From a virus (taxonomy: Duplodnaviria; Caudoviricetes), in the IMG/VR virus record IMGVR_UViG_3300024501_000006, positions 1-34,323 of that record: a DNA stretch of 34,323 nt; one strand, given 5' to 3'. The stretch's first letter is position 1. Each line of letters starts with the position of its first letter. Shown piece after piece: positions 5,164 through 28,765 of this stretch. Under the pieces are notes generated by a model. It was not told the DNA's origin. It saw only the letters and a list, made by a program, of their open reading frames with translations, and did not search any database. Position numbers and translations under genes: made by a program.

Positions 5164-5267
5164 GAGCGCCCTCCGTCCTTCATGAAGGATGTGACGACGG
5201 CGCCGATGACGCAGAGCGTCATGATGGCGGCGCATATCCAAAAACCTTGCGCGATGATGTCCATCAT
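5160..5267 (-). CDS. 35-aa single-TM peptide
   Basis: Manual translation MMDIIAQGFWICAAIMTLCVIGAVVTSFMKDGGRS; GGAGG SD and ATGA overlaps at both ends. Confidence 0.7.
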   Translation of the reverse strand: MMDIIAQGFWICAAIMTLCVIGAVVTSFMKDGGRS

Positions 5268-5917: not shown

Positions 5918-5936
5918 GTCTCGTGGTCCTCTGTTG

Positions 5937-6323: not shown

Positions 6324-6622
6324 GCCTCAGCCCTCCTCCAGCGATTGTGCTTGCGCCGTGCGACCTCGCCCGCGATTGCGGCGCGTGACGCAGGCGGGGC
6401 TTCCTGCACGGCAGGCCGCGTCATGTGCCCCTTCACGGCATAGAATGCGCACCGCTCGTGGAACGTCTCACGCGGCGTGCGGTAATGCGCGGATTGCTCG
6501 GCATCGCACTTGGGGCGCAGGCCCCGCAGGTGAGCGCATCCTTCGCACGTTAGGCGCTGAACAAGCTGTGCGGCCTGAGCGGCGGCGGCTTTGACGTCGT
6601 GCGTTTCGTTGCGGCGGGTCAT
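6320..6622 (-). CDS. Hypothetical Cys-containing (possible Zn-binding) protein
   Basis: CEGCAH...C...C pattern; start/stop overlaps at both ends. Confidence 0.65.
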   Translation of the reverse strand: MTRRNETHDVKAAAAQAAQLVQRLTCEGCAHLRGLRPKCDAEQSAHYRTPRETFHERCAFYAVKGHMTRPAVQEAPPASRAAIAGEVARRKHNRWRRAEA

Positions 6623-7908: not shown

Positions 7909-8399
7909 GCTGCGAGCCTCCGTTCCTTCACCTGCCGTTGCTTGAATTTCTTGACGCGCCCCTGCCCGTCCACGATGCGAAGCTCGATGTCGGGAAAGCA
8001 CGCCATGAAGACGCGCATACGGAGCGAAGCCGCTTCCGTGATCATGCCTTTCACGTCATCGACGCAGAGCTTGCCGCCTTCGTAATAGGCGAAATCTCCG
8101 CTGTAATGGCCGATGGTGTGGCCGTTGATTTTGAGGGCAAACTCAGGCTGCACCGACACGGCGCGGACCTGACGGGCGCGCTCCAAAAGCTTCAGCGTTC
8201 CATAGCGTTCCGCCTCTGCTTTTGAGGCGAACAGGATGCCGTCAACCTCGGTCTTTTTCGCGCCGAACTTGTTGGTTCGCTTCGCGGCTTCCGGCTGCTC
8301 GCGAAACTCGGCCACGCTCATCCGCTCCTGCGGCTTGCGGCGCAGGGCGGCGGGGCGGTCGTCTTGCTTCAGGGCTAGGGCAGCGTTGTGCTTGCTCAT
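7905..8399 (-). CDS. DUF1064-family PD-(D/E)xK nuclease (putative resolvase)
   Basis: NKFGAKKTEVDGILFASKAEAERY...QPEF...YSGDFAY...DDVKG. Confidence 0.88.
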   Translation of the reverse strand: MSKHNAALALKQDDRPAALRRKPQERMSVAEFREQPEAAKRTNKFGAKKTEVDGILFASKAEAERYGTLKLLERARQVRAVSVQPEFALKINGHTIGHYSGDFAYYEGGKLCVDDVKGMITEAASLRMRVFMACFPDIELRIVDGQGRVKKFKQRQVKERRLAA

Positions 8400-9232
8400 G
8401 CTTGCTCTCCTGCGAGAAGCGAAAGCTGTTCGGCTTTGGGCTTGGGTTCTTCAAACAGGCGGGGCTGTTTCCACGCCTCCTCAATGCGTCGGCAGGCGAT
8501 ATCGAAATACTTGGGCTCGATCTCAATGCCGATGAACTTGCGGCCTAGCTTGAGCGCCGCGACGCCCGTGCTGGCGCTGCCCATGAAGGGGTCAAAAATC
8601 GTATCGCCCACATCCGTCGTCGCACCAATGCAGCGATGCGGGAGTTCTAGCGGGTACGCTACAGGGTGCTCCTTGTCCCCGCCCTGCCGCTGCTCACGCG
8701 CCACTTTCCAGATCGTGCCAAGGCCTACGTGATCCTGGTTCCACTTCCATTCACGACCACGCACAAACCAAAGAATGCGCTCGTCGGAGCGGACAAACAT
8801 GCGGGCGTTCAGCATCATGCCGCCGCCGCGCTCCCAGATCACTTCGGACCTGAGACGCCAGCCTTCCGGCTTGAACCATGAAATCGGGTGCAGGCATTCG
8901 CCATCCCGCCAGCGCAGCTGGTGATTATAAAACAGCGAAGCGTCAGGCGCAGAACACGCAGCCACAGCGTTGAAAACTGCGCATTGAAATGCTTGATAGG
9001 CATGTTCCGGCAGATCGTCGGCGTAGCCGCTATCGTTCCAGCGGGAAACGAAGCCCGCTCCGCCCCGGCTTTCGCCCCACAAGCCGCTAGCCTTCGCAGG
9101 AATGGCGGTCATCTGGTTGTAGGGCGGCGACGTGACGGTGCAGTTGATGCCCGACAGCGTCGGCAGGATTTCCCGGCAGTCGCCAAGGTACAGAACCGCG
9201 TCTCCGATTGTTTCGATTGCGTGGCGGGTCAT
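8396..9232 (-). CDS. Orphan beta-class DNA methyltransferase (SPPY, likely N4-cytosine)
   Basis: TSPPYN, HPVAYP, DPFMGSAST and FIGIEIEPKYFDIACRRI motifs. Confidence 0.92.
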   Translation of the reverse strand: MTRHAIETIGDAVLYLGDCREILPTLSGINCTVTSPPYNQMTAIPAKASGLWGESRGGAGFVSRWNDSGYADDLPEHAYQAFQCAVFNAVAACSAPDASLFYNHQLRWRDGECLHPISWFKPEGWRLRSEVIWERGGGMMLNARMFVRSDERILWFVRGREWKWNQDHVGLGTIWKVAREQRQGGDKEHPVAYPLELPHRCIGATTDVGDTIFDPFMGSASTGVAALKLGRKFIGIEIEPKYFDIACRRIEEAWKQPRLFEEPKPKAEQLSLLAGEQA

Positions 9233-9705
9233 GATGCCGCCTCCAGCTCACCGCCGAGTGCGCGCCATGAAGCTAGGTCGATCGATCCAATCACCACGTC
9301 AGGCTTGGCGATCTGCATCGGCGGCGGCGGGGTCCAGTCGGACGATGAAGCTTGCAGGGCGATCATCCGCCCGACGCGCTGTGACACCAGTTCAGCGATC
9401 AGCGCGCGGCAGGCAGCAAGGCGCTCGACCAGCGCGGCATCGGTTTCCATGCGCTTGGTGATCTTGCGGACAGCGTGGATCGCCGTGCTATGATCGCGGT
9501 CCCCGAAATGGCGTCCGATCTGAGGATAGGTGACGCCTGACAGTTCCCTCGCCAGGTACATGGCTTCCTGACGCGGATGAGCCCAGCGCTTTTCGCGTGA
9601 GGCATCGACAAGCATCTCGCGCGGGATACCGTGGATCTTCGCCACCGCCGCTTTCACTTCGGCCATCAGCGGCTTGTGGGATGGAATCGCCTGCCCGTCG
9701 TACAT
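9229..9705 (-). CDS. DnaA C-terminal (domain IV) HTH protein
   Basis: HPRQEAMYLARELSGVTYPQIGRHFGDRDHSTAIHAVRKI matches the DnaA domain IV signature; no AAA+ domain. Confidence 0.88.
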   Translation of the reverse strand: MYDGQAIPSHKPLMAEVKAAVAKIHGIPREMLVDASREKRWAHPRQEAMYLARELSGVTYPQIGRHFGDRDHSTAIHAVRKITKRMETDAALVERLAACRALIAELVSQRVGRMIALQASSSDWTPPPPMQIAKPDVVIGSIDLASWRALGGELEAAS

Positions 9706-10347
9706 TTATGTCCCCTGTTCCAGTTTTTGAATTTCAAGCGCCATTGCGTCCCGCTTGCGCAGGCTGTTGTCAGCGAGTTCGGGATACTTGGCCGCGACAC
9801 GCTCAGCGGCGGCGAGTTCGTCGCGGAGCTGCTGCAAGCGCTCGGCTGTGCGGTCGATGGCTTGAGGCTCAGGGGCGATGCCTGCAACCATTTCGGCCAG
9901 CCGGTCGCGGATCATCAGGCGCGTGTCTGTCAGCTCGTCCAGACGCTCGGCAAGCTCGCCCCATGTCGGCCACCACTTGCCACTCCAGCCCGCGAGCACG
10001 TGCCGGACCACGTCGCCGGGGTATTCCCGCAGGTGAGCCGCGTAGGTCGAGACCATCAGTTCCAGCCGCCCGGCGCTGTCAGCGCGCGGAACCGTCTTGA
10101 CGCTGAGAATGGCCAGCCATTCCTCGATGGCTTCGACGCTGGCCGGGGCAAGGCTGGCGTTGATGACTTTCAGCGCCGCTGGCAGGTCAGCCGACGAGGC
10201 GATATTGACCGTCAATGACGTCGGCCTCTGCCGGAACGTCGTGTCCCCGTCCTGGCTCGTCGGGAACACGGTTTCCGTTTTCACGAAGCAATCGACGCCG
10301 AATGACGACATCCGCGACAGTGCTGCGCCCGTGTTGGCCGAAGGCAT
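9706..10347 (-). CDS. Replication-associated protein (helicase loader/inhibitor-like), start uncertain
   Basis: Follows the initiator; YAAHLREYPGDVV...KWWPTWGELAE resembles loader-type FPTxAEL motifs. Start placed at ATG 10347 (GGAGG 11 nt upstream); the frame is open to 10503. Confidence 0.6.
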   Translation of the reverse strand: MPSANTGAALSRMSSFGVDCFVKTETVFPTSQDGDTTFRQRPTSLTVNIASSADLPAALKVINASLAPASVEAIEEWLAILSVKTVPRADSAGRLELMVSTYAAHLREYPGDVVRHVLAGWSGKWWPTWGELAERLDELTDTRLMIRDRLAEMVAGIAPEPQAIDRTAERLQQLRDELAAAERVAAKYPELADNSLRKRDAMALEIQKLEQGT

Positions 10348-11080
10348 CCGGCCCATGACCTCCGGGTGCATTTCGCGGCTTTGGGCGCCGCTCGAGATAG
10401 CTACGGACCCAGTTTCGCCACGTGCCGCGCCAGTCAAGTTTCCGGCCTGCGGCGCCCGGCTTCCCGTGCCAGTAATCCCTGAAACGATCTGCTTCATTTT
10501 CAATCTCGGTGTCGCTGAGGGGTTGTTTTGCTTTGAAGGCGATGCTTCGGGCGTCGTGCGCCCACTCGTCCGGCAACAGCCAGTCGTCGGGGAGCGATGT
10601 TCCCCGCGAACTTCGGTTCTGTTTTTCGGAGGGCTCAGGCTTCGAGGGCGCTGAAATTTTCGGGTCGCGTTCTATAGAAGCTTTAGCTTCTATAGATACT
10701 GACGGTTCCTGACGGTTAGTGACATGACGCCAGCTTCCGGTGCATTCGACGTTTTTTGCAGGTGCATTATTTGCACCCGCAATTTCTGCCGGTGCATTCT
10801 TGAGCTGTTCAAGGTTGAGAACGTAGGCTGTACGCGAGCCGTTTCCGCGACCGAGATGCTTAGTCGAGCGCGTGATGAAACCGTCAGCCTCGAGGGCTTT
10901 CAGGTGATGCGCCAGCGCCCGCACAGAGACACCGCATTCATCAGCCAGAAGCTCTTGAGACGGCCAGCATTTCCCGTATTGATCGGATCTGTTGGCAAGC
11001 GCGATCAGAACCAGCTTGCGGCATCCAGCCAGGCGCGTGTCGCGCGCGTCCATCACCGCTGAAACGTGCTGAATGCTCAT
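10187..11080 (-). CDS. Phage replication initiator (N-terminal winged HTH, C-terminal DnaT-like domain)
   Basis: KLVLIALANRSDQYGKCWPSQELLADECGVSVRAL..HLKALEADGFI; C-terminal FRDYW...KLDWRGTWRNW. Confidence 0.88.
   Translation of the reverse strand: MSIQHVSAVMDARDTRLAGCRKLVLIALANRSDQYGKCWPSQELLADECGVSVRALAHHLKALEADGFITRSTKHLGRGNGSRTAYVLNLEQLKNAPAEIAGANNAPAKNVECTGSWRHVTNRQEPSVSIEAKASIERDPKISAPSKPEPSEKQNRSSRGTSLPDDWLLPDEWAHDARSIAFKAKQPLSDTEIENEADRFRDYWHGKPGAAGRKLDWRGTWRNWVRSYLERRPKPRNAPGGHGPDAFGQHGRSTVADVVIRRRLLRENGNRVPDEPGRGHDVPAEADVIDGQYRLVG
10671..10799. promoter_or_regulatory. Putative replication origin inside the initiator gene
   Basis: Perfect 12-bp inverted repeat TCTATAGAAGCT-TT-AGCTTCTATAGA (10671-10696); tandem CTGACGGTT x2; C(C/A)GGTGCATT iterons at 10737, 10759 and 10789; locally AT-richer; falls in the inter-domain linker as in lambda O. 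Confidence 0.7.
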
Positions 11081-16633: not shown

Positions 16634-16847
16634 CGTGGATTTTCACACGCTGCTCAGGCACCCACCGCGATCCGGCCTGCACAAGACACGTCCCATCGCG
16701 GTAGTACGATTTGAGGCCGCTTTCCTTCCAACGCGCGACGCATTCGTAATGCAGGCCCGCGAGCCAGATCGCAGCGCCAACAGCCCCGGCAATCGCGACG
16801 GCCGTAACCGCCAGGATTGCAGGGGATTGGACGCGAACCCGGATCAT
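16620..16847 (-). CDS. Small single-TM protein with two Cys in the C-terminal part
   Basis: AILAVTAVAIAGAVGAAIWLAGL TM, then C...C; ATGA overlap with the upstream gene. Confidence 0.68.
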   Translation of the reverse strand: MIRVRVQSPAILAVTAVAIAGAVGAAIWLAGLHYECVARWKESGLKSYYRDGTCLVQAGSRWVPEQRVKIHVTTP

Positions 16848-17092
16848 CCGAAGCGCGGCCGCAGGCTCCACAGGACATGCCAGACAATCAGCCAGATGCC
16901 GTAGAGCGCGAACGCATCCAGAAGCGTGTCCAGACCGACGCCGCCTTCACGTCCGAAGTCATCGAACGGGTTCACGTTGGCCAGCCTCACGCCGAGCAGC
17001 CACACAATAACTAACACATAGCAGAACCGGCGAATGTTCATCCAGTTCAGTTTTCCGCTCTTGGCGGTGATTTCCAGCCCTAAGATATTCAC
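16844..17092 (-). CDS. Small two-TM membrane protein
   Basis: AAGGAG SD 8 nt before GTG 17092; hydrophobic segments FCYVLVIVWLLGV and AFALYGIWLIVWHVLW. Confidence 0.68.
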   Translation of the reverse strand: MNILGLEITAKSGKLNWMNIRRFCYVLVIVWLLGVRLANVNPFDDFGREGGVGLDTLLDAFALYGIWLIVWHVLWSLRPRFG

Positions 17093-17118
17093 GGCACTTT
17101 CTCCTTGGTTGATGCCGC

Positions 17119-17403
17119 TTAGGCGGCGGGTAAACTCTGAAGCTCGCAGCCGAACGCGCGCCACGACGCAGCCTCGCGTGCGGCGTAGTTCAAGAGGCCG
17201 ATATTGGCCTCCTCCGCTTCCGTGAGCGTGTCAGGCTTCAGCGCGACACAGGCCGCAGCTTTCACCTCATTTGCTGTTTCGCGGATGATCACGGAGTATG
17301 ACTTTGGCGACGGCGGGGGCTTGTGCCCGCAGCTCGTCAGCGCTGGAAAACTCAGGCAGGCTGTCAGGAGCAGCGAGCGCTGCATCCTTTGCATCTTCGA
17401 CAT
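17119..17403 (-). CDS. Rz1: Outer-membrane spanin (o-spanin) lipoprotein
   Basis: Signal peptide with lipobox ALTS-C followed by Pro-rich GHKPPPSP; overlaps the 3' end of the i-spanin in another frame. Confidence 0.82.
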   Translation of the reverse strand: MSKMQRMQRSLLLTACLSFPALTSCGHKPPPSPKSYSVIIRETANEVKAAACVALKPDTLTEAEEANIGLLNYAAREAASWRAFGCELQSLPAA

Positions 17404-17614
17404 TCTCGACTTCCTCTCGGGCTGTTGCCAGTACGCGTTCACGCTCTTTCGCTGTCTCGACTTCCTGCTTGTCGGATTCCTTCCGACGCCCGCGCCGCTC
17501 CGCATTGATGTCCACGAACTTGAGGAACAGCAGCGCAGCGATGACCCAGAGCACCCATTCGGGAATGCGCTTCAGAAAGCTCCAGATGCCAGTGCCGATG
17601 GCTGCGATGTTCAT
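17267..17614 (-). CDS. Rz: Inner-membrane spanin (i-spanin)
   Basis: N-terminal TM WVLWVIAALLFLKFV then a helical charged domain; ATGA overlap with the endolysin stop. Confidence 0.8.
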   Translation of the reverse strand: MNIAAIGTGIWSFLKRIPEWVLWVIAALLFLKFVDINAERRGRRKESDKQEVETAKERERVLATAREEVENVEDAKDAALAAPDSLPEFSSADELRAQAPAVAKVILRDHPRNSK

Positions 17615-18672
17615 TTGAGCGGCTTCTTTGCTTTGTGCTGACCGTATTTGTAGAGCGCGAAGCCGAGCGCCACGACGATCAGCCACGTGATCAGCTCGCG
17701 ATTGCCCTCATTGCTCACCCACGTCTGCGCAGCCTGCGGGAGCAGGTTCGTCGTGCCGAGCGCTGTGACAGTGAGGCCCCAGAAGCGCTTCGACAGGACC
17801 ATGTCCTTCGGCTCAAGGCTGGCCGGGGCTGCATCCTTTGGCAGCGGAGGCGGTGCGACCTTTGCGGGAACTGGTGGGGGAGACGTGCGAGGGACGCCGC
17901 CCGCCTCCCCCTGTCCTGTCGTCGGAGACACAACGACAGGTTTCTCGATCTTCGGGGAGGCAGCGCCAGCGGCAGACGTCCGGGCAGGGGCGACCTGCCG
18001 CTGGGCCGCCTCGACCGCAGGCACGCGCGGTGAAGCGGGTTGGGTAAGCACAAGCTCGTCATCGGCGGGGAGCGGGTAGCGCTGGGCCACCACGAGCACG
18101 TCACGGAATGGCGTCTTGAACAGCACCTTGTCGGTCCCGATGTCGCCGGGCGGACGCTCGCGAACCAGGGCCACGGCATCGTCCGAACAAGCGACCTCGA
18201 AGTCATAGCCCATGAAGACCACGGCCTCGGCATACCTCCGACGCAGAAGGCCCCGCAGCGCCTGCTTGTGCTGGCCGAGCGTAGCGTACAGCCACATCCC
18301 GAACGCGTCGGCGGCATCATCGAAGCGGCGCGCATTGACATGGCGCAGCACGCTTGAGCGCTCGAAATTGACGGGGCCGATATTGTAGCAGAGCGAGACC
18401 AGCGCGGAGAACTGGTTGCCATTGAGCGGGACCGTCACCAGCCGCTTGACGTGACCCTCGAACACGCTGAGCGCGTGCCGGAACATGCCAAGCGCTTCGT
18501 CATAGGTGCAGCTATCGCCCTCTTTGACCGGCGACCCATCGGGATAGAACGTTACCCCGTAGCTCATCTCCCATGCGCCGCCTTCGCACAGGCGGGCCTT
18601 GAGACGCGGCTCACCCTCGAACTGCGTTATCAGGCGCAGCCCGTGATTGTTGACGTACAGATGATCGTTCAC
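17611..18672 (-). CDS. GH24 lysozyme endolysin with Pro-rich linker and C-terminal hydrophobic segments
   Basis: GLRLITQFEG...YG, VTVPLNGNQFSALVSLCYNIG...FERSSVLR, LRGLLRRRYAEA; C-terminal SKRFWGLTVTALG and LITWLIVVALGFALY. Start revised to GTG 18672 (GTGA overlap). Confidence 0.92.
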   Translation of the reverse strand: MNDHLYVNNHGLRLITQFEGEPRLKARLCEGGAWEMSYGVTFYPDGSPVKEGDSCTYDEALGMFRHALSVFEGHVKRLVTVPLNGNQFSALVSLCYNIGPVNFERSSVLRHVNARRFDDAADAFGMWLYATLGQHKQALRGLLRRRYAEAVVFMGYDFEVACSDDAVALVRERPPGDIGTDKVLFKTPFRDVLVVAQRYPLPADDELVLTQPASPRVPAVEAAQRQVAPARTSAAGAASPKIEKPVVVSPTTGQGEAGGVPRTSPPPVPAKVAPPPLPKDAAPASLEPKDMVLSKRFWGLTVTALGTTNLLPQAAQTWVSNEGNRELITWLIVVALGFALYKYGQHKAKKPLK

Positions 18673-20210
18673 GCCTCGCCCCACTCCACTTCGCCAACAC
18701 GTCCGTAAGGCGTGCCCCTGTCGCTAAGTCCGACCGTGAACGGCACACGCGCGCTACGCGGCTCGCCCGGTTCCAGAGGCACGTCGATCGCGTGCAGCAG
18801 GTTGCAGAGGGCCGCGCGGCTTTCATCGCCCGTCACGATGCGGACAGGCAGCACCGTCTGTCCGGGCTCGCGATTGGTCAGGACAAACGCCGTTTCCTTT
18901 TCGGAGGGGTATGGCGTGCCCTTGGGAATGACGACGGAGGCGACCCCCTCCACCTTGTCATAGACCTCGATGGCCACCGAATAACTGATGATGTCCTGAA
19001 TGGTGAGGTCGGACTTGCGGCCCTCGATCACAGCCGCACGGATCGCAGCGCCAAGGACAACCGCAATCTCCGGGTCAATGTCCGTCTTCGGCTCCTGCCC
19101 GAAGACCTGCGCAGCAAGGGCCTGCACGGCGGGCATCCTGGTTCCGCCTCCGACAAGCACCACGTCATTGAGGTCACGCACGCTGAACTTGGGGTCTTTG
19201 CGCTGCGCCTCGGCTATCGCGATGGTGCAGGCTTGGCGCATCCGGGCGAGGATGTCCTTGGAGAGATGCTCCAGCAAGGGGCGGTCCACGACGTGGTCCA
19301 TGTGCAGGACTTCCCCGCCCGGTGTGCGGTCGAAATCCTTGATGCGAAACTCCGTCTTCTGCTTCCGGCTGAGACGCTTCTTTGTCTCCTCCGATTCCTG
19401 AAGCACAAGCGTCATCGCTGTATCGTCCACAGCAAGGTCAACGCCTTCGTGGGATTTGGACCACTCCCCAACGATGTAGCGGCCTAGCATGGCATCAACG
19501 TCAGAGCCGCCCGTGATCGATGACCCGCCCGTGCCGAGCACCGTGACAAGGCCTGCGCCGGTCTGGATGATCGAGACATCCGTGGTCCCGCCACCGACAT
19601 CGAGAACAGCAATGCGGCGGACCTTTTTGAAGTCGTAGCCATAGGCCACAGCCGCAGCGGTCGGCTCGTCCATCAGCTCGATATACTTGAGCCCCGCCAT
19701 CTTGCCCGCGTCTTCCACCGCCGCGCGCTGGTCATGGGTGAAGGTCGCCGGCACGCAGATCACGGCAGCGTCGGGCCTCTCCCCCTTGAACTTGATCGTC
19801 GCGGCATCGAGCAGCTTAGATATGACCGCGCTGCAAAGCATGGTCGGGCTATAGGTGTAGCCGTCTGGCCCCTGATAGTGCAGCTCGCCGTTTAGCTCGT
19901 TCGTTTCCTCGTCCCGGCCCTCGGCGGTCTGGTGGCCGGTGTCCTCGTCTTCATGCCACGCAGCGGCAAGCTGGCGCTTGAACAGGCGGAAGCAGAAATC
20001 GCGATAGCGCTTTCCCGCTTCGATGCCATCGAGGCCGACGAATATCTGGCTGTCACCCTTGGCCACGGCATCGGCGGGAACGATGGTCACGACGGACGGC
20101 AGGAGCGGCGATCCATCGACGTTGATCACTTCCGGCCCGCGCGGGGTCCAGTGCGAAACGCTGCTGTTACTACTTCCGAGGTCGATTCCTACGAGCTTGC
20201 GGACTTTCAT
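18669..20210 (-). CDS. dnaK: Hsp70/DnaK-family ATPase lacking the alpha-helical lid
   Basis: GIDLGSSNS, LFKRQL, CVPATF..DQR, DEPTAAAVAYG, LDVGGGTTDVS, GGSDVD, VLVGGGTRMPAV and DPEIAVVLGAA motifs, followed by a divergent SBD-beta; 513 aa. Confidence 0.95.
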   Translation of the reverse strand: MKVRKLVGIDLGSSNSSVSHWTPRGPEVINVDGSPLLPSVVTIVPADAVAKGDSQIFVGLDGIEAGKRYRDFCFRLFKRQLAAAWHEDEDTGHQTAEGRDEETNELNGELHYQGPDGYTYSPTMLCSAVISKLLDAATIKFKGERPDAAVICVPATFTHDQRAAVEDAGKMAGLKYIELMDEPTAAAVAYGYDFKKVRRIAVLDVGGGTTDVSIIQTGAGLVTVLGTGGSSITGGSDVDAMLGRYIVGEWSKSHEGVDLAVDDTAMTLVLQESEETKKRLSRKQKTEFRIKDFDRTPGGEVLHMDHVVDRPLLEHLSKDILARMRQACTIAIAEAQRKDPKFSVRDLNDVVLVGGGTRMPAVQALAAQVFGQEPKTDIDPEIAVVLGAAIRAAVIEGRKSDLTIQDIISYSVAIEVYDKVEGVASVVIPKGTPYPSEKETAFVLTNREPGQTVLPVRIVTGDESRAALCNLLHAIDVPLEPGEPRSARVPFTVGLSDRGTPYGRVGEVEWGEA

Positions 20211-21418
20211 TCTGCGGCCACTCCCATGCTCGGAGCTGCGTCAATTGTGGACGTTGGACCGATCACAAGCAGGCGCTCAGTCTTTGCCGCTCGCCGCTCG
20301 TGCTGTGCGGCCAACCCGCCCTGACGCGCGTTGCGCTGCTGCGGGGTCATCTCCGGTTCGGGCGGATCAACCAGCGTCAGGGGCTCCTGTACGGGCTCTG
20401 GCGCCGGTTCCGGCTCTGGCTCGGGGGGTGGCGGTGGGGGAGGCTCGGCCGCGACAGGCGGGGCTGCGGGGACCATCTGGCCACGGAGCGCTGCCACTTC
20501 CTGCTGATGCCGAAGCTCGGCCAGCTCGTCCGAGCGCTCCCGGTCGCGCTTGGCGTCATTTGCGCTGATATCGGTGATGAGCGCCCACAGGCTGAGCGAG
20601 CGCGCGGCTTCCAGCGTGCAGAGCATGAAGATGAGCCACACCCATGCCCAGAACGCTTGGGACGCCCTGTCAGCCAGTTCGATCTCTGACAGCCTGCGAT
20701 CCGTGGTCGCCTGCTGCACGGGGCTCGCCTGCCCCGCCATGAGCCCGTCCTCGCGCGCCTTGAGGGTGGCAAGCTCGGCCTGGATCGCTTCGCCGCGCGC
20801 ACGCATGGCGCTTTCGGTCTTGTCGCGCCTGATGCCGTCCACGCTGCCGAAGTAAAGGCCCTGAGCGAGCAAAAGCGATTGCGCCTTCGAGATGCCCTCG
20901 GGGGACATGCTCGCCATGATCTGCTGCTCGGTCTTCAGTTCCGCGATCTGCGTCCTGACACGTTCCAGCTCTGCGCCGGTGCCCTGTATCGCCGCCTGCT
21001 GCGCCGTGCCCAGCGTCCCAGCTTCCTCGCCGGCAAGGGCTGCCTTCGCAGCCAGTGAGGCAGAGCTTTCCGCAAAGCGATCCGGCCATACGACCTTCGC
21101 CCCGTTCTCCGCGTTGTGGACGCCAACAGCCGCAAGGCCAACGAAGATGAACGCGCCCGCCACTTTCCGCCATGTGGTCGATGCGGTGAGCATGCGGATA
21201 AAGGCGACGGTCGCGAGCAGTTCCGCACCGAGCACGGCCACGATCATGCCCATGATCGGCAGGAAGCTCAGCCAGTTCCAGTCAGCCGTTGCGACGATGC
21301 CGGTAACCGACAGCGAGGCAAGGCCAAGCGTGATGATGACCACCGCAAACAGCGCAAACTTGCGTGTCGCGTCGGCCTCATTCTTGAACTCTAGGAATTT
21401 ATCCAAAAAGCGGCCCAT
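20207..21418 (-). CDS. Four-TM membrane protein with coiled coil and PG_binding_1-like motif
   Basis: Three N-terminal TMs, coiled coil, AQSLLLAQGLYFGSVDGIRRDKTESAMR, fourth TM FWAWVWLIFMLC, Pro-rich tail; ATGA overlap with the Hsp70 gene. Confidence 0.85.
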   Translation of the reverse strand: MGRFLDKFLEFKNEADATRKFALFAVVIITLGLASLSVTGIVATADWNWLSFLPIMGMIVAVLGAELLATVAFIRMLTASTTWRKVAGAFIFVGLAAVGVHNAENGAKVVWPDRFAESSASLAAKAALAGEEAGTLGTAQQAAIQGTGAELERVRTQIAELKTEQQIMASMSPEGISKAQSLLLAQGLYFGSVDGIRRDKTESAMRARGEAIQAELATLKAREDGLMAGQASPVQQATTDRRLSEIELADRASQAFWAWVWLIFMLCTLEAARSLSLWALITDISANDAKRDRERSDELAELRHQQEVAALRGQMVPAAPPVAAEPPPPPPPEPEPEPAPEPVQEPLTLVDPPEPEMTPQQRNARQGGLAAQHERRAAKTERLLVIGPTSTIDAAPSMGVAAE

Positions 21419-21437
21419 GCCCTGCCCTTTTCTGCTG

Positions 21438-21869
21438 TTACGGTTGTCCCGTCGTGATCCAGAAAAGCACCAGACCTACGCCGAGCGACATCACCGCGCC
21501 AAAAACCGTCAGCGCGATCTGACGCTGCAAGGCTTTTTGTTCGACCAATCGCTGCATCTGAGAGCCCGCGATAATCTTCTCTGCCCATTCGGCGTTCGAT
21601 TTTTCAAATTCCATGTGGATTTTCTCGATTTCTCTTTGAATGTCGGCGCTTACATCGCGCCTTACCTCGCCCATCTCTCGACGGATTTCCCGAAGATCGT
21701 CCTGAGAGACGGATCGCTCTAGCTCCTTGAGGAGTGTGTCGAGCGCCGCTTCGAAGCGCGTTCTGAGAACGGCAATGTCAAGCTCGACACCGCTGATCCG
21801 GTCCAGGCGCGCGAAGGCGTCACGCTGGCGCTCAATCTCAGCGATGTCGCGTTGTGTCGCGTCCGTCAT
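21438..21869 (-). CDS. Coiled-coil protein with C-terminal TM (holin/antiholin-like candidate)
   Basis: Charged heptad-rich body plus IALTVFGAVMSLGVGLVLFWI; upstream part of the lysis cassette. Confidence 0.7.
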   Translation of the reverse strand: MTDATQRDIAEIERQRDAFARLDRISGVELDIAVLRTRFEAALDTLLKELERSVSQDDLREIRREMGEVRRDVSADIQREIEKIHMEFEKSNAEWAEKIIAGSQMQRLVEQKALQRQIALTVFGAVMSLGVGLVLFWITTGQP

Positions 21870-21893
21870 TTGCCCCTGCCCCGCTTCTCATCG

Positions 21894-22562
21894 TCAGGTC
21901 TCTCCGCGCCGCGTCATCAGCCCGATGAAACGGTCGATACTTGCAGCGCGTGGATTGGCGATGCCCGTGGCTTGGTGTTCCCGATCCAGTGCAGCGCGTG
22001 TCACGTGCAATTGTTCTGAGATGTGTTTTTGCCGCGTCGCTGACAGCGTCAGGAACGTGGCGAAAGTCTCGGCCTCATCCACCTCGAACGCATCCATCAG
22101 CATGTCGCCCGTGATGTCGGCCTCCTCGCCCACAGGCCCATAATCGCTCATCAGCGCATCGGGCTCGGGCAGGAGCTGCGGCGGCTCCTCCTCAACGGGC
22201 GGTGGTGGAGGCGGTGGCGGTGGCGGCGGTGCAGGCGGCTCCTCGCGCGGCTGGGCCACTTCGATTGCGCCGACAAGCTGGAACAGGAGACGGATATTCT
22301 CCTCGATGGCTGCTACCCGCTCCTCGTCCCAATCCCCGGTCGGGCGGCTGGTTGGCAGCTTGATGCCGTGAACCTGCTCGGTGATGTCGCGGACATCAGC
22401 CCCGGTCACCATCAGCACGCGGCCAGAGTGCAACAGCCAGCGCTGCTCGGTCGATGCGTAGGGATCGAGCCGGCCCAGCGTTGCCCCGTCCTGAATGCGG
22501 TGGAATGCGTAAGGATCGCCCTTGAATGTGAAGCGGTCAGGACGGTTGCGGAGACGGGACAT
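21894..22562 (-). CDS. Hypothetical protein with poly-proline linker
   Basis: GGAG SD; 11 consecutive Pro codons (22197-22229) separating two domains. Confidence 0.8.
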   Translation of the reverse strand: MSRLRNRPDRFTFKGDPYAFHRIQDGATLGRLDPYASTEQRWLLHSGRVLMVTGADVRDITEQVHGIKLPTSRPTGDWDEERVAAIEENIRLLFQLVGAIEVAQPREEPPAPPPPPPPPPPPVEEEPPQLLPEPDALMSDYGPVGEEADITGDMLMDAFEVDEAETFATFLTLSATRQKHISEQLHVTRAALDREHQATGIANPRAASIDRFIGLMTRRGET

Positions 22563-22614: not shown

Positions 22615-22779
22615 ATGCTGGCTTTAAGCGTTATGCTGTTGGCTTTGGTTGCGCTCGTTGGCGCGGGCTTCTGCTTCATTACCGGATCAAGCTGGATCGG
22701 GCTTGGCCTTGTCGGCCTTTCTAACGTTTTGGAATTTACGGCCTTCGCCTTGGCCGGGAGGGCGGAAGCGGAGGAGTAG
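22615..22779 (+). CDS. 54-aa hydrophobic membrane protein (moron-like)
   Basis: Manual translation MLALSVMLLALVALVGAGFCFITGSSWIGLGLVGLSNVLEFTAFALAGRAEAEE; GGAGG at 22604-22608; opposite strand to its neighbours. Confidence 0.68.
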   Translation: MLALSVMLLALVALVGAGFCFITGSSWIGLGLVGLSNVLEFTAFALAGRAEAEE

Positions 22780-25700
22780 GGGGGCTCGCCGGAGCGGGCA
22801 GCATCGCTTGCGGCGCGGACGCTAATGGCAGCGGCGCAGACGGCGGTTTGGCGGCTTTGGAGGAAGCGGCCGAGGGCTTCTTCAGATCCGCGATAGCGCG
22901 GCGCAAAATCGCCAGTTCTTCTTCCGCCTTCGCCACGTTGGCGCGCTTGCTGGCATATTTGGACGTAAAAACGCCGATACTTGTTCCAGCCGCCACGCCT
23001 GCGCCAAGCATCATCCACGCCTTGGCTTGCGCGTACTGATCTTCAAGCTCCTGCACGCGTGCCAGATTGGCTTCAGTCTGCTTATCCTTTGCCACCTCAA
23101 TAGCAGATTTTAGCTTCTCCTTGATGACTTCGGAGTTCTGCCAGGCAAGCCCGGCCTCAATGGCGCCGGTGCCTCCGATCAGCACGTCAGCCGCGCCGAC
23201 ATTGCGACCGATAAACTTGTCAGGGAACAGGCCGGCAGGCGGTGTGACGTTTTTGGGTGGGCGCGCTTCCCACGATCCATCGCGTTTCGTGGCGAACGGT
23301 ACGTTTTTCTCGGACCCGCCCCGCTGCCAGAACTCATTCAGCCTTGTTGCGCGGCGATCAAGCTCGGCTCTCACGGCTGCGCGTTGCGCCGCTGTTTTCG
23401 GCGGCGTAATTGGCGCGTTATTCAACAGCGCGTTGGACTTTTTGATATGGTTCGTGGCCGTGAGCTTGGATATTCCAGACCCTCCCAAACGGGCCGTTTT
23501 CGCGCCGAGCGCTCCTGCAATGCCGCCTAGAAGCGGCGCATAATCGCGGAACGCTTGCTGCTCATCGGTTGGACGCGTCTTCTCAAACGCGGCCTGCTGC
23601 TCCCATTTTTGCAGGTTGCTGTCTGCGCTGGCCAACCGCTCACGGGCTGCCTTGGCTTCCTTTTCGATTTCCGCCTTACGCCCATTGATGGCCTCGCGTG
23701 TGCGCGGCCCAATGGTTCCATCAGCGCCGGTCGGCCCCAAGTCAAAGCCTTCGCGGTCAAGGCGTTTTTGCAACTCCTTCTCGGTGGCTGTTGCAAAGAA
23801 CTTTTGCTGTTCCTGAAGATCAGCAAGGATAGCGAGCACGTCCTCGCGCTCTTTACGCGCGCGCTCCAGCTCGCCCATCGTCTCGGCGCTCTGCGCGTCT
23901 GCTTCGCCGGCAAATGTTCCGGCCATGCCGCCAACAACGCCGCCGGCGATCATGCGCGATGCAGTTCCTGACCGCCCCTTTGTCGGAGCACCCCCGAAGC
24001 CGCTCTGCGCGGGCAGCTTCTGCGGCCCGGCCTTTGGACGGCTCTCTGCCTTGCCTGAACCGAAGCGGACAATCTGCTGGTCGTCGGGAACGTCTTGGGT
24101 TTCCCAAGGGCGACGAGCGCGGCGTTCTTCGGGGGTGAAGTCTCTGCGGGTCTGGACGTTGCGGGCTTCGGTTTCTCCGGCGAGGCGCTTGTATCCGTCA
24201 AACAGCTGCTCGCGAGTGAAAAGATTTCGGACGCCAAAGTCTTCAGCCTTGCGCAACTGACGAGTTGCATCCGCCTTGATGCGAGCAAGCTCCCGCTTCT
24301 CTGGCATGTTCTGGATGGCTTTGAGTTCGGCCACAACATCAGGCGGAATGTTGTCGCGGCCTTGCCATGTCGCCTTAAGTTCATTCAGTCGCTTCTGTGC
24401 TGCGATGACGTGCGGCATTGCAAGAATTTCTTGCGAGCGCTTCGCTAGCTGCATGTGATTATGCGCTGCCATATCAGACGGAAGCAAGTCGTCGTTCATT
24501 GACCCGCCGCGCGCAAAACCTTCGCGCGCCTGAATGCCATGCTGATACTCATGCAGCGCAATGGAGCGAGGATCAGACGAGCCTTTGCCGATGTGCAGGC
24601 TTTCGATGGGCGTACCTGAGCCCATGAATGCGCCCTCGTCCGGCCTGCCTGACCGCATGACGCGAACCTCGTCCAAGTCCTGCATTCCCGGCACATCACG
24701 GTATGCTTTGAACATGCCGTCAGGGTGGGTAAGGTAGTCCCGTCCATTGCCGATTTCGTTGAACGTGGAGCGGCTATCATCAATCTCAAACCGCCACTTG
24801 CCATCGACGCCCTTGAACCAGCCCGTCGCGTCCCAGATGTCATCACGGCTCGCGCCTTCGGCTTCCATGTTCTGCGCACGGGCGAGAGCGAGCTTGTCTG
24901 CGGTCTTCGCGTTGACGCCTGCGAAGGTCTGCTGGTCCGGGGCGCGAAACCTGCGAGCAGGCGCAGCCTTCGACACACCACGACGCGGCCCTAGCAGCCT
25001 GTTCGCTCCGGCTCCTGCAAGACCGCCGCCGACAAGACCGCCAAACGCATTGAGCCCACGGTCTGCGTCGTCAATGACGCCGTCACGGTTCGCGTCAGTC
25101 GGGTTGGCTACATAGCCGGCTACGCCGCCAGCTGCCGCGCCTACGCCTGTGGGGGTGGCTCCTGTTCCAGCTAGAAGCTTGGAGCTTTGTGTTTCGGAGG
25201 GGTCGAACTTGGCGAACTTGCCTCGGATGTTGGAGGGGTCGAAGATAAGACGGCTTGGCCCGTAGCTGTCGGCCAGATCAACCCCATCGAAACCGGCGCG
25301 TTTTGCAGCCTCGACAGCCGACCGCGATGCCCACGACAGTTCGCCTTTTCCACTTTGGCTGCGGATGGTCTGTATAGCATCGGCCGCCGAAACGCCGGTG
25401 AGTTTCTCATACTCCGCAGCGATTTTGTTGAGATCGTCTGCGTTTTTGATTGAGGCAATTCGACCCCTGCTATACACTGGATAGATCGCGCCGCCCTCTG
25501 CAAACATCTCGGCAAACTTCGAATCAGATGTGAGATAGACGCCCGCCGTGCCGCCGCTGTCGGCCTTCGCTTTCATGGCCTGAAGGTTCTTTGGGCTCCC
25601 ATGATACAGCGGCGTATCGACATCAAACCCCTGCTCTCTCGCTCTCTGCATTCGAGAGGCTTCATCCATTGGCAGGGGCTTGGGACGGCCGCCGAACCCC

Positions 25701-28700
25701 GACTGCTCTGGCGGACGGCGGGGGGCTGTGGTGGCGGGCTGACCCGTAGCTTGTGCGGCAGTCGGCGGCTGAGTGGCCGAGCCAGCGCGCGCAGCTTCCA
25801 GTTTTTTTGTCTTGTCCGCAATGCGTCGACGGGCGTTGCGCTGCTTGTCCAGGTTGGCGCGCATCAGGTCGTCAACGTCGGGATGCGAGCGGTCAATCTG
25901 ATCGTACTGCTTCAGAAGGCGCTGAAGCTCGTTCTTGTCTGTCTCGATGCGCTGCATCCACTCTTCAGGAGTGGGCGGCGGCTTTGGCGTGCGTGGCTTC
26001 GGCGGTCCTTTTAGCTTATTGCCGAGCGCGCCCATCGCGGGCGGCTCGATAACAGGCGGCGCGTCGGGAGACGGCAATGCGGAGGCGGCCTCGTCCGCTT
26101 GGCGAAGACCGTACAAACCCTTTGTTACGCGAGACTGGAATTTGCGACCGGGCGTCGTGACGGCATCAAAGACAGAGCCAGCAGCCTTCAGGGCGAGCGG
26201 TATCGGGCTGCCTGTCGCAATCGACAATCCACCCGCCACGGTCCAGCCGGCCGGATTGCCAGCAACGTGGGCAAGCCTGTTGCCGGGGCCACGGATGTTA
26301 TCAATCGCATCCTTCGCGCCCTGCTGGTTCAGGTGCGTATTTGAACCCGCCTGCTGATTGAGGCGCGCAATACGCTGGTTCTCAATCCGCATGTTAGCGA
26401 TGGCGTTGCGGAGTTCGTTGCCCCGCTCCGGGCCAAGCACCGTGACCAGCGCCTTAAGCGTGCCCTCATTCTGAAGCTGCGTGATGCGGGCTGCGGCATC
26501 TTCTGGCGACGTGCGAAGCAGCGGATTGAGAAGCGCGTCACGGATCGAGAGCGCTGCAACTTCCTGCTGGCGCGGTGACAGTTTTGCCAGATCGCGCGCC
26601 ATGTTCTCGGTAGCAAGCTCACTCTTGGCGACAGACAGAAACCGATCGCCGAACGTGACCGAATCATCCGCGCCGTAAAGGTCGCCATGCTGTGCGCGTG
26701 AACCCCTGTAGCCGGGGAACGTCTCAAGCCGGTCTAGCAGGGCCTTGCGGCGTGTCTCGTAAGCGTTTGACGTCTTGTTAGGCGTGCCGTCGATATTCTT
26801 CGCGCCGCGCGCCACCTCGCCAATTTCCGATTGCAGCCAGTGTGCGGTGCCGATTGGGTCGTCCGCAATTTTTGCGTCAATGACATCGTCCAGCGTCCTG
26901 CCGGTCGTCGTTGCTTCGATAGCCCAGCTTTCGGGAACCAGATCCCGGTAAGCCGGCGTCTTCATCAGCATGACCATTTCCGCCACCGCGCCAGCTTGCT
27001 CGGGGGTGGCCGTTTTGTCTCTCCAGACACGGTTAGCTTCGGAGATCGAATTGGTATAGGCTTCCTCGCCATTCCGGCGCATCAGCGCCTTGATCTCATC
27101 CGACTTGCCAGCCAGTGTTTGTTCGCCGAGGACGGTTTTGAAGGTCGCTTCAAGTTCATCCTTCTGCGTAGAGGCAAGCTGGTGAATAGTGTCCTGCATC
27201 GTATAGCGAGAGCTATTGCCAGACTCATTGAACGAGTGCGCGGCCCTGCCCCAGCCATTCGTTTTCATCGCGACATCGCCAGCAAGATTGCGAGCCTCGG
27301 CAGGGCTATAGCCCCTCGACTGGAGATATTGCGGGAGGTCGTCTTCAATGAAGAAGGCAAGCGCGTATCGGTCGCTCTTAAGGGGTTCATAGCGGCTAAG
27401 CAGGCTGCCCACGTAGTCGTTTACGACGTTACTGGGTATGCGAGCGCCCCGCATGAAGCGGCTGACAGCCTTGCTTGTATCCCGAGCAATGGCGATCTCC
27501 TCACGGGAGATGTTGGGAGCAACGTTGCGGGGAGTGGCCTGGAGGGTGGCCGGAGCCCCACCCCCCGCCTGCTGCCCCGCGCCGGCAGGCCCAGCCTGAG
27601 CCATCCGGGGCGGACCCTGCGGGATGGGGGCTTGGGCGACGGGAGCGACGGGGGGAGCGACTGAGGGCTGTGGGGGCGACACCGGGCCGAGACGTGCGCC
27701 GCCTGCGTTTGTGGGCGTCAGTGCCTGCGGTGACATTGCATCGGCTGACGCTTTGGCCCCACGGAAAATGCCCATGCCGATGAGGTTGAGTGTCGCGTCC
27801 TCGGCCATGTTTTTGACGCGGCCGACAAGGCCGGTTTCGCCCGGCTGCGATTTAAGCCAGCGGATATAATCGGCGGCAAAACCCATGCTTTCCGGGTCAA
27901 GCATGTCCGCAAGGCGCGGCGTGTTTCCGCTGAAGCCTAGACCAGTTGCTGCCACGTCCTTAGCAAGCTGAGTGGGCAGCTTGCCGCCTGGTGCAAACTT
28001 TCCAACCGCACCGCGCGCGATCAGATACTGCATGAAGCCTTCGGTCAGCGCGCCGGTGAAGGATTGCTCGCTCTCTGGAACAGGGATTTTTGCCGCTGAG
28101 AAGTCGAAGCGAGGGGCGTTATCCAGGGTCTGCTGCATCTTGTCGAAGCCGCCAGACTTCACGCGCCCCGCAATGCGCTCCAGAAGCGTGTCTGCCCCGA
28201 CGCCAAACTCCGACCCGGCCATGATCCCCTGCATTTCGGGGTCAAACGACATCGCGTAAGGCACGGTTGCGACAGCGGCCAGATCGCCCGGCGTGTTGAG
28301 CGCCGCCTCTGCTGCGCCGACTGCCGCACGTTGGGCATGTATAGGCAGGATGCGCATTCCCTTGCCGAAGTCTCCCCCGTCGTCATTCAGTTCCACGGTT
28401 CCCTTGGAACCCGTGTCTCGAAACGCCAGACCGGGTGATGCGGAGTTGAAGATTGTCCGTTCCTGCCGGCGACGTTCTTCCTCTGCCTTCTGCGCTGCGA
28501 ACTGGCTGTTCACCTGCGCCGTACTCTGGCGCATGGCCATGGTGATGGGGTTCGGCGCGTTGAGATCAGGAGCAGACGGGGCCGCAGCCTGCGGCGTGCC
28601 CATGGAGACCATGCGCTGACCTTGGCGCTCCAGAAACGACGGCTGGGCTGGCTGCTGACCAGATGCCTTCGCTTCAAGTTCGCGCAGCCGCTTGACCTTG

Positions 28701-28765
28701 CGCAGCCGCTCAAGTTCGGCGCGAGGATCTGGCGCCGATTGTGGTGATTGCAGTTGTGGAGGCAT
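22736..28765 (-). CDS. Large polyvalent ejection (internal virion) protein: ART-like, LPD23-like + HExxH metallopeptidase, PG-binding domains
   Basis: 2009 aa, third of three ejection genes. Motifs: LYHGS...GVYLT...GFDGV...FDPSNIR (ART-PolyVal-like); TGWFKGVDGKWRFEIDDS (LPD23-like); HEYQHGIQAREGFARGG...GETEARNV; LQKRLDREGFDLGPTGADGTIGPRTREAI. Confidence 0.88.
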   Translation of the reverse strand: MPPQLQSPQSAPDPRAELERLRKVKRLRELEAKASGQQPAQPSFLERQGQRMVSMGTPQAAAPSAPDLNAPNPITMAMRQSTAQVNSQFAAQKAEEERRRQERTIFNSASPGLAFRDTGSKGTVELNDDGGDFGKGMRILPIHAQRAAVGAAEAALNTPGDLAAVATVPYAMSFDPEMQGIMAGSEFGVGADTLLERIAGRVKSGGFDKMQQTLDNAPRFDFSAAKIPVPESEQSFTGALTEGFMQYLIARGAVGKFAPGGKLPTQLAKDVAATGLGFSGNTPRLADMLDPESMGFAADYIRWLKSQPGETGLVGRVKNMAEDATLNLIGMGIFRGAKASADAMSPQALTPTNAGGARLGPVSPPQPSVAPPVAPVAQAPIPQGPPRMAQAGPAGAGQQAGGGAPATLQATPRNVAPNISREEIAIARDTSKAVSRFMRGARIPSNVVNDYVGSLLSRYEPLKSDRYALAFFIEDDLPQYLQSRGYSPAEARNLAGDVAMKTNGWGRAAHSFNESGNSSRYTMQDTIHQLASTQKDELEATFKTVLGEQTLAGKSDEIKALMRRNGEEAYTNSISEANRVWRDKTATPEQAGAVAEMVMLMKTPAYRDLVPESWAIEATTTGRTLDDVIDAKIADDPIGTAHWLQSEIGEVARGAKNIDGTPNKTSNAYETRRKALLDRLETFPGYRGSRAQHGDLYGADDSVTFGDRFLSVAKSELATENMARDLAKLSPRQQEVAALSIRDALLNPLLRTSPEDAAARITQLQNEGTLKALVTVLGPERGNELRNAIANMRIENQRIARLNQQAGSNTHLNQQGAKDAIDNIRGPGNRLAHVAGNPAGWTVAGGLSIATGSPIPLALKAAGSVFDAVTTPGRKFQSRVTKGLYGLRQADEAASALPSPDAPPVIEPPAMGALGNKLKGPPKPRTPKPPPTPEEWMQRIETDKNELQRLLKQYDQIDRSHPDVDDLMRANLDKQRNARRRIADKTKKLEAARAGSATQPPTAAQATGQPATTAPRRPPEQSGFGGRPKPLPMDEASRMQRAREQGFDVDTPLYHGSPKNLQAMKAKADSGGTAGVYLTSDSKFAEMFAEGGAIYPVYSRGRIASIKNADDLNKIAAEYEKLTGVSAADAIQTIRSQSGKGELSWASRSAVEAAKRAGFDGVDLADSYGPSRLIFDPSNIRGKFAKFDPSETQSSKLLAGTGATPTGVGAAAGGVAGYVANPTDANRDGVIDDADRGLNAFGGLVGGGLAGAGANRLLGPRRGVSKAAPARRFRAPDQQTFAGVNAKTADKLALARAQNMEAEGASRDDIWDATGWFKGVDGKWRFEIDDSRSTFNEIGNGRDYLTHPDGMFKAYRDVPGMQDLDEVRVMRSGRPDEGAFMGSGTPIESLHIGKGSSDPRSIALHEYQHGIQAREGFARGGSMNDDLLPSDMAAHNHMQLAKRSQEILAMPHVIAAQKRLNELKATWQGRDNIPPDVVAELKAIQNMPEKRELARIKADATRQLRKAEDFGVRNLFTREQLFDGYKRLAGETEARNVQTRRDFTPEERRARRPWETQDVPDDQQIVRFGSGKAESRPKAGPQKLPAQSGFGGAPTKGRSGTASRMIAGGVVGGMAGTFAGEADAQSAETMGELERARKEREDVLAILADLQEQQKFFATATEKELQKRLDREGFDLGPTGADGTIGPRTREAINGRKAEIEKEAKAARERLASADSNLQKWEQQAAFEKTRPTDEQQAFRDYAPLLGGIAGALGAKTARLGGSGISKLTATNHIKKSNALLNNAPITPPKTAAQRAAVRAELDRRATRLNEFWQRGGSEKNVPFATKRDGSWEARPPKNVTPPAGLFPDKFIGRNVGAADVLIGGTGAIEAGLAWQNSEVIKEKLKSAIEVAKDKQTEANLARVQELEDQYAQAKAWMMLGAGVAAGTSIGVFTSKYASKRANVAKAEEELAILRRAIADLKKPSAASSKAAKPPSAPLPLASAPQAMLPAPASPPTPPLPPSRPRRRP

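Follow-up and report, generated by a model that had tools for sequence, protein, structure and literature searches.

An apparently undescribed gene pair, encoding a membrane protein and a lidless Hsp70, among the lysis genes of uncultured freshwater phages

Uncultured freshwater phages carry, among their lysis genes, a unit of two genes that encode a predicted inner-membrane protein with four transmembrane (TM) segments, here called TM4, and an Hsp70 that lacks the alpha-helical lid. We describe this unit from one stretch of DNA (the window), which is the entire 34.3-kb linear virus record IMGVR_UViG_3300024501_000006 (34,323 nucleotides), an incomplete metagenomic contig that is 66% complete. 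The pair is a real and conserved two-gene core, and it is apparently undescribed: no description was found in the full-text literature searched, most subscription papers being outside its coverage. We propose that a short hydrophobic strand, with which TM4 ends in the cytoplasm, is the likely binding site of the phage Hsp70, which would cycle on ATP, likely without host co-chaperones, and would switch the predicted wall-anchored TM4 on or off, regulating lysis timing. Taken whole, this picture of Hsp70 acting on the TM4 tail as a lysis-timing switch is read from sequence and is put forward tentatively, with slightly more doubt than confidence.

Gene order around TM4 and Hsp70

Scans anchored on Hsp70 and on TM4 gave, after exclusion of the 80 genome loci and of six viral Hsp70 loci that looked unrelated, a pool of 161 phage loci with partial redundancy. 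The pool contains 67 distinct TM4 3' ends, 57 of them followed by Hsp70; four lead directly to the lysozyme gene when scored by script, two more do so by inspection of open reading frames (ORFs), and four are unscorable, either because they lie at contig ends (L194, L197, L205) or because the locus is partial (L229). Behind Hsp70, the lysozyme gene is present in 46/57 cases and the other 11 loci end within 264 base pairs (bp). A long upstream gene fills the TM4 slot at all family Hsp70 loci, including L065, L066, L071 and L073, where it has no BLAST similarity to the TM4 of the window. Homologues therefore occur not in random contexts but in a conserved order, TM4 - Hsp70 - lysozyme. The terminase, portal and capsid genes of genomes G008, G007 and G004 (L252, L253, L254) look mutually unlike by eye, suggesting that the module may move between podophage lineages.

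At seven distinct loci TM4 leads straight to the lysozyme gene and Hsp70 is missing. One of these loci belongs to a complete genome of 39.3 kb; the seventh, L238, comes from the 11 loci without a scored TM4 end. PF00012 was found in none of the five Hsp70-less records searched, which include the complete G004 and the 95%-complete G003 (two of the five are at least 90% complete), and Rz-like genes are kept in the six Hsp70-less loci whose ORFs were printed. A reading made earlier from the sequence alone had placed Hsp70 at the centre of an expanded lysis cassette. Because seven loci keep the other genes without it, Hsp70 is better regarded as an optional control.

From hydropathy and charge, TM4 is predicted to consist of three N-terminal TMs, a periplasmic antiparallel coiled-coil hairpin, a fourth TM, a cytoplasmic helix, a Pro-rich linker and the tail. 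Its four hydrophobic peaks lie at residues 21, 55, 86 and 263, and the AlphaFold2 (AF2) model (mean predicted local distance difference test score, pLDDT, 76) has helices at 119-169 and 198-231. We found 253 homologues (181 representatives), none of them among 50,697 GenBank phage records, and no family name in Pfam, PHROGs, NCBIfam or PADLOC; a fold search returned generic coiled coils only (best Z 10.0), and the ESM Atlas viral clusters without names, with DUF4407 only at 0.75. At the peptidoglycan-binding-like tip of the hairpin, the window's own TM4 has no Pfam match. PF01471 reaches E 2.2e-4 in L070, just under the cut-off, and E 0.07-0.08 in L225 and L227, and TM4 profile positions ~170-207 match many multi-repeat proteins; TM4 is predicted to be wall-anchored. 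Further cytoplasmic types exist among the 181 representatives: homologues P0288, P0290, P0293, P0297 and P0307 have a conserved coiled-coil cytoplasmic module with a basic KTKTKKK stretch, and P0314 and P0323 have other helix-turn-helix (HTH)-like ends. No genomic context was found for these homologues, and a scan for loci with coiled-coil-tailed TM4s gave none.

The lidless Hsp70 family

The Hsp70 of the window matches PF00012 with E 6.8e-84 (282.6 bits, cut-off 20.6) and has the actin-like nucleotide-binding domain (NBD), with kept ATPase residues, and the beta-sandwich substrate-binding domain (SBD) of the superfamily. Its K78 and T209 are the equivalents of DnaK K70 and T199 (E. coli DnaK numbering is used for residue equivalents throughout). 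Among the best 120 of 2497 matches it belongs to a distinct family of at least 71 clusters, mostly of 492-524 amino acids (aa) with a few fragments, below which scores fall to ordinary 635-aa DnaKs at 33-35% identity. No family member was found among the 50,697 GenBank phage records, the best full-length match there being 33%. Aligned with DnaK, all family members end after the beta-sandwich, without the lid; likewise the AF2 model (pLDDT 86.9) ends in strands, and its fold matches best to truncated and ATP-state DnaK (TM-score 0.85 to 7KZU/5NRO). A quick tree of 47 rows places the 25 rows of the family in a single group, separate from the eight DnaKs (Shimodaira-Hasegawa-like approximate likelihood ratio test, SH-aLRT, 99 against DnaK); the tree names no donor. 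Another short Hsp70 (523 aa), on a low-GC viral contig (L075:722-3081), falls outside the family in the tree, and the gene ahead of it has an end that looks GrpE-like by eye.

We compared 43 non-redundant family members with 49 DnaKs residue by residue. The equivalents of D8, K70, R71, P143, E171, D194, T199, D201, E267, K270, R345 and Q433 are invariant (43/43). At the J-domain contacts, the R167 equivalent is R in 0/43, and E206, E217, D211, D477 and Q378 are mostly replaced. K55 is replaced by I, L or V, R56 mostly by E, E264 is not among the six commonest residues at its position and V436 is mostly L or M. The roles of these residues as J-domain contacts, as cleft bridges absent in HscA and as a pocket residue altered in HscA follow the accessible part of PMC8215388. 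By sequence, the contacts with J-proteins and with GrpE-type nucleotide-exchange factors are lost, and no J-domain gene was found in 5/5 related records, four of which are 100% complete.

The family keeps the fold, the catalytic residues, the peptide-groove Q433 and the hydrophobic pocket of DnaK (PF00012; TIGR02350, NF001413). Unlike DnaK, which has ~635 aa with a lid and a C-terminal tail, it has neither, measures 484-513 aa and is only 33-35% identical; it has also lost the J-domain and cleft-bridge residues, is carried by phages and has a fixed membrane partner. In keeping with this, the window's protein scores 270.9 against the TIGR02350 cut-off of 822.55 and 280.2 against the NF001413 cut-off of 648, the lid is missing from every family row and the J-contacts R167, E206, D211, E217, D477 and Q378 are not kept. 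A parallel is HscA-IscU (and HscC-DjlB/C), with which the phage family shares the loss of the K55-E267 and R56-E264 bridges, a larger residue at 436 and, on the reading proposed here, a single short client motif in one neighbouring protein, as far as the available text of PMC8215388 describes these systems. The lost bridges are a shared trait rather than a sign of membership: the HscA models (TIGR01991/NF003520) give 236.1 against 708.55, and HscA, which goes with HscB in an Fe-S cluster context, has a lid and a dedicated J-protein, whereas the phage Hsp70 has neither, its putative client being the tail of a membrane protein. The best reading of these sequences is a dedicated, HscA-like Hsp70 rather than a general one, which agrees with the dedicated module proposed in the sequence-only reading.

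That reading also named no Hsp70 from the lysis cassette of a small podophage; phage Hsp70s as such have been described before. Phage-encoded DnaK/DnaJ occur in jumbo phages (moraphages, and Lak and other huge phages); in the part of PMC12619734 consulted, moraphage DnaKs resemble those of the hosts, were acquired recently and often come together with DnaJ, the genomes being >200 kb. The present family is instead a diverged lidless clade of 39-57-kb phages, without a J gene and in the lysis region. A survey of viral Hsp70s (PMC12978162) gives in its text a single phage sequence, >96% identical to host DnaK, and its Table S1 could list more. The closterovirus HSP70h and giant-virus Hsp70s covered in the accessible text of that survey are likewise specialised and virus-encoded, but belong to eukaryotic viruses and match in structure at 17-25% identity.

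The TM4 tail and a possible role in lysis timing

In every Hsp70-linked TM4 inspected, the C-terminus consists of a basic helix with a GG-like motif and, behind it, a short hydrophobic strand, which agrees with the DnaK motif (hydrophobic core, basic flanks); no Pfam family, the KGG-type one included, fits the tail. There are 14 Hsp70 clades, each with a tail type of its own, and the strand-type tail is retained across clades <40% identical. Tail identity follows Hsp70 identity (rho 0.81, 43 non-redundant pairs). Among 27 sequences (351 pairs), tails are at least 68% identical where the Hsp70s are >65% identical and at most 46% where they are <55%, a separation that is seen neither for the TM4 body (18-100%) nor for the equally adjacent lysozyme N-terminus (minimum 35, maximum 70). 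DNA comparison shows TM4 bodies swapped whole, start codon included, up to a point just ahead of the tail, which stays with Hsp70: L024 and L066, and also L070 and L071, differ from the TM4 start until just before the tail and have tail and Hsp70 in common, and the window and L024 have a common body with different tails and Hsp70s. With a leave-one-clade-out tail profile, 13/14 Hsp70 clades score 12-60 bits (members printed) and seven Hsp70-less tails at most 1.8. Four loci came from a scan made after the prediction that tail type and Hsp70 go together had been set: L246 and L247 fit it by profile, L245 by eye only, and L243, with another tail and no Hsp70, fits too. A tail-Hsp70 partnership is quite probable on these comparisons, and the co-variation of tail alleles supports the earlier suggestion that the wall-anchored protein's cytoplasmic tail is where Hsp70 acts.

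An HNH endonuclease gene (L034:1296-2018) and inserts of 600-850 bp (L195, L196, L232) lie between TM4 and Hsp70 at some loci; they break the overlap of the two genes, and the tail type is still matched.

The cognate strand-type tail is absent from 7/7 Hsp70-less loci. Their TM4s have a KG-type basic helix and then a folded domain, which is HTH-like at six loci and of a different kind in L243. All HTH matches are weak (P1 ParB, E 0.084; HTH_24, E 0.13; Sigma70_r4_2, E 0.2), and the ESM Atlas has no match for this alternative tail. Profile comparison gives no alignment between the two tail types, so that the KG helix common to both is a by-eye resemblance. Together the loci form a natural two-by-two arrangement, the strand tail occurring on body A or B with Hsp70 (window, L073) and the HTH-like tail on body A or B without it (L225, L237; L238, L239).

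From these data a mechanism may be suggested. (i), the tail strand would probably be a dedicated client site, by analogy with the LPPVK of IscU for HscA. (ii), Hsp70 may mask the adjacent basic GG helix or strip it from its target, a step we favour with some reserve. At that same level of confidence, and because a KG-type basic helix is retained in the Hsp70-less phages, with a folded, weakly HTH-like domain behind it, the strand/Hsp70 tail and the HTH-like tail would be alternative input modules on one membrane body. (iii), the output would be lysis control, holin-, antiholin- or releasin-like, for the membrane-tethered endolysin; we lean only slightly towards this, and infer the lysis role of the pair from its position beside the lysozyme gene in all informative loci. 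Extra lysis-cassette genes whose products target a tethered endolysin or the cytoplasmic portion of a membrane protein have parallels in phiKZ gp143 (PMC12894885), Mu releasin gp25 (PMC9239132) and the T4 RI/RIII antiholins (PMC8385771). In the available portions of these papers none is described as an ATPase or chaperone; they have no sequence match here, and TM4 differs from them by its long periplasmic coiled coil with a peptidoglycan-binding-like tip. A bolder version, which we hold to be unlikely, would make TM4 a lysis checkpoint, peptidoglycan-anchored and with a swappable cytoplasmic sensor, in which a co-chaperone-free lidless Hsp70 might read the ATP state of the cell through its cognate tail, or DNA might gate the protein through the HTH-like domain; the clades would then form an orthogonal chaperone-tag library.

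If the switch model is true, an energy-dependent step would be added to the control of phage lysis, the known regulators compared here using no ATP-driven chaperone as far as the sources seen describe them. The phage protein is also a natural counterpart of lid-truncated DnaK, in which the contacts with J-proteins and exchange factors have gone as well, so that the capability of a minimal self-sufficient Hsp70 becomes directly testable. At least 14 Hsp70 clades with their own tails provide pairs of both kinds, cognate and non-cognate, and phages without Hsp70 serve as natural controls.

Several points weigh against the switch model. Both tail binding and the lysis role are putative, read from sequence and gene position. 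Two cases with Hsp70 are missed by the tail profile: the L070/L071/L232 clade, with 2.0 bits or less, and L245, with 1.5. Co-variation is not domain-specific (partial rho 0.38 for the NBD, 0.19 for the SBD), and a window-by-window analysis did not locate a binding site. Tail and Hsp70 are adjacent in the DNA, and recombination in the Pro-rich linker, a possible hot spot, would by itself make them travel together; the last ~7 TM4 codons also contain the Hsp70 ribosome-binding site. The equivalents of the interdomain allostery residues Y145, D148, K155, R167, L392 and I483 (roles as given in the part of PMC4595643 consulted) are changed, so that canonical coupling of ATP and peptide is not assured. 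About 65 residues lie between the strand and the cytoplasmic helix, more than the reported entropic-pulling range of ~20 residues, which makes direct pulling on the membrane core unlikely. The HTH assignment is weak (E 0.08-0.2). In Pfam, PHROGs and NCBIfam no holin family matches TM4, holins being too diverse for this absence to exclude it, and a separate 2-TM gene after Rz1, not TM4, could be the holin.

The strongest alternative, although we consider it improbable, is that the unit is real and serves another late function, in which TM4 is a tether for assembly intermediates or phage DNA, or a block to superinfection or to a host defence, and Hsp70 frees the cargo. The basic helix and HTH-like domain of the Hsp70-less TM4s, suggestive of nucleic-acid binding, the location of the unit between virion genes and lysozyme and the missing holin match would all suit such a role. 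Against it, the unit, or TM4 alone, precedes the lysozyme gene at every locus with enough sequence, mostly overlapping, and PADLOC finds no defence-system match in TM4.

We give less credit still to the idea that the tail only docks Hsp70, the true client being the lysozyme, held unfolded or flipped across the membrane. This enzyme has a C-terminal anchor and no N-terminal signal, endolysins of this kind require their TM for lysis in the accessible accounts (PMC7143992, PMC8879335), and lysozyme-domain identity does correlate with Hsp70 (rho 0.74). However, the Hsp70-less phages have the same endolysin layout, the anchor swaps freely, irrespective of catalytic domain or Hsp70 (rho 0.04), lysozymes only 40-55% identical stand behind near-identical Hsp70s, and inserts of 660-820 bp separate the two genes in L013:2949-3607, L015:11528-12300, L022:3662-4479 and L214 (the three inspected contain no long ORF on the plus strand). 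An endolysin that swaps independently and keeps its layout without Hsp70 is an unlikely client, and the endolysin target entertained in the sequence-only reading is thus disfavoured.

Only a shade below this we place the possibility that Hsp70 is a general late chaperone, in its slot by chance, whose co-variation with the tail is mere linkage from recombination in the Pro-rich linker. The breakpoints do cluster in or near this low-complexity linker, co-variation is not localised within Hsp70 and jumbo phages have DnaK without such partners (PMC12619734, in the portion seen). Yet the lid, J-contacts and cleft bridges that general chaperoning requires are lost, the other adjacent segment, the start of the lysozyme, does not remain matched, and the strand-type tail persists across very divergent clades and is missing at all seven Hsp70-less loci.

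Finally, that an assembly chimera joined the phage to a fragment of host dnaK is rejected as next to impossible: the record is indeed an incomplete contig, but contig 8 of run X4, from another study, matches window 17100-20400 with zero differences, relatives at 84-87% DNA identity have the same junctions intact, the gene order is repeated across dozens of loci, the family stands on a separate branch at merely 33-35% identity to DnaK, and dN/dS (nonsynonymous over synonymous rates) against five relatives (0.05-0.15 for Hsp70, 0.06-0.16 for TM4) indicates that Hsp70 is under purifying selection. Contamination by host dnaK and a pseudogene status of Hsp70 were likewise rejected.

Neighbouring genes, genome and host

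Every ORF of the run of seven minus-strand genes noted earlier is present (Table 1). Reading of the sequence confirmed the overlaps ATGA at 20207-20210, GTGA at 18669-18672 and ATGA at 17611-17614, and Rz1 covers the 3' end of Rz in a different frame; the poly-Pro and coiled-coil/TM genes are followed by spacers of 24 and 19 bp, without overlaps.

Table 1. Features of the TM4-Hsp70 region in the window
Feature	Position	Strand	Basis or remark
TM4, 403 aa, predicted inner-membrane protein	20207..21418	-	hydropathy, charge, AF2 model, homologues
Peptidoglycan-binding-like tip of TM4 coiled coil, residues ~173-208	20795..20902	-	homologue PF01471 scores
Putative Hsp70-cognate tail, TM4 residues 355-403 (last ~45)	20210..20356	-	co-variation with Hsp70 allele
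GG motif in basic helix of tail	20315-20326	-	
Hydrophobic strand RLLVIG of tail, after basic helix	20258-20275	-	
Lidless Hsp70, 513 aa	18669..20210	-	nucleotide-binding domain, linker, beta-sandwich substrate domain; no alpha-helical lid
GH24-type lysozyme	17611..18672	-	Pro-rich linker, C-terminal hydrophobic anchor, no N-terminal signal; SpmX-like layout
Rz-like inner-membrane spanin candidate	17267..17614	-	phrog_1026 E 0.005; single N-terminal TM
Rz1-like outer-membrane lipoprotein candidate	17119..17403	-	overlaps Rz; signal-like stretch and Cys by eye
Coiled-coil protein with one C-terminal TM, holin-accessory candidate	21438..21869	-	phrog_9415 (unknown function) E 0.0035
Poly-Pro protein, flanking gene	21894..22562	-	no TM; no family match (Pfam, PHROGs)

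The lysozyme is a GH24 phage lysozyme (PF00959, E 7.5e-30, 104.3 bits, cut-off 22.3), most likely starting at GTG 18672, not 18684. With SpmX and with endolysins that have a C-terminal TM (M4Lys, LysAP) it has in common a muramidase, a Pro-rich linker and a C-terminal TM, according to the part of 10.1101/418723 seen, which leaves the origin of the SpmX TM open. Unlike for SpmX itself, the match is restricted to the muramidase: NF058676 (BgtA) and NF051871 (SpmX) match residues 7-155 only, both below cut-off (60.1 against 700 bits for SpmX), 0/10 C-terminal pieces of lysozymes match the SpmX model, and the context is that of a phage. The C-terminal anchors are of several unrelated types (window 17611-17973 (-); L225, L070, L073, L245).

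After the endolysin, a protein with an N-terminal TM and an overlapping lipoprotein gene have the layout of a two-component spanin, the PHROG match of Rz being weak. Rz1 may start at 17403, 17394 or 17385, upstream of a lipobox-like ALTSC seen by eye; NCBIfam gives it no match, and homologues occupy its slot in relatives. Directly after Rz1, a small 2-TM gene (window 16844-17092 (-)), with same-slot homologues in about ten relatives and no match in NCBIfam, may encode the true holin or an immunity protein. The gene behind Rz1 is a different one in Hsp70-less phages and some distant Hsp70 phages, where its product has one TM, a basic N-terminus and two Cys in the C-terminal part (L225:9831-10220, L238:12054-12443, L071:13077-13559). 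Upstream of TM4, the coiled-coil/C-terminal-TM gene layout occurs both with and without Hsp70. The poly-Pro gene was rejected as a core part, only its C-terminal ~88 aa being conserved in most relatives.

By Pfam and PHROGs, the window also encodes RecT, a replication initiator, two methyltransferases, a NusG-like antiterminator, an SU10-type adaptor and a 2009-aa polyvalent protein. This gene content fits a podophage-type genome, and the phage is probably temperate. Its structural genes match those of Octadecabacter, Sinorhizobium, Pelagibacter and Caulobacter phages, among others, and among the matches listed the nearest scored relatives of its Hsp70 outside the family are Rhodobacteraceae DnaKs; together these point to an alphaproteobacterial host. 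A scan of GTDB genomes (24/64 parts) gave only unrelated Hsp70/MreB among the matches listed, and a by-eye look at provirus record G008 revealed no host genes. Promoter and terminator scans gave matches at chance level, and reads of the RNA run X20 cover 4/30 bins and are uninformative about expression. At least half of the window is present in 17 of 20 listed runs from river, drinking-water and freshwater metagenomes, two of which may be the source runs.

Elsewhere in the window, the NusG-like antiterminator and two N6/N4 DNA methyltransferases lie at 4186-11080 (-), and a stand-alone gene for a DnaA C-terminal HTH (9229-9705) adjoins the replication initiator. The 2009-aa polyvalent protein (22736-28765 (-)), with LPD23, a weak peptidoglycan-binding domain and an ART-PolyVal domain barely at cut-off, is strongly mosaic across relatives.

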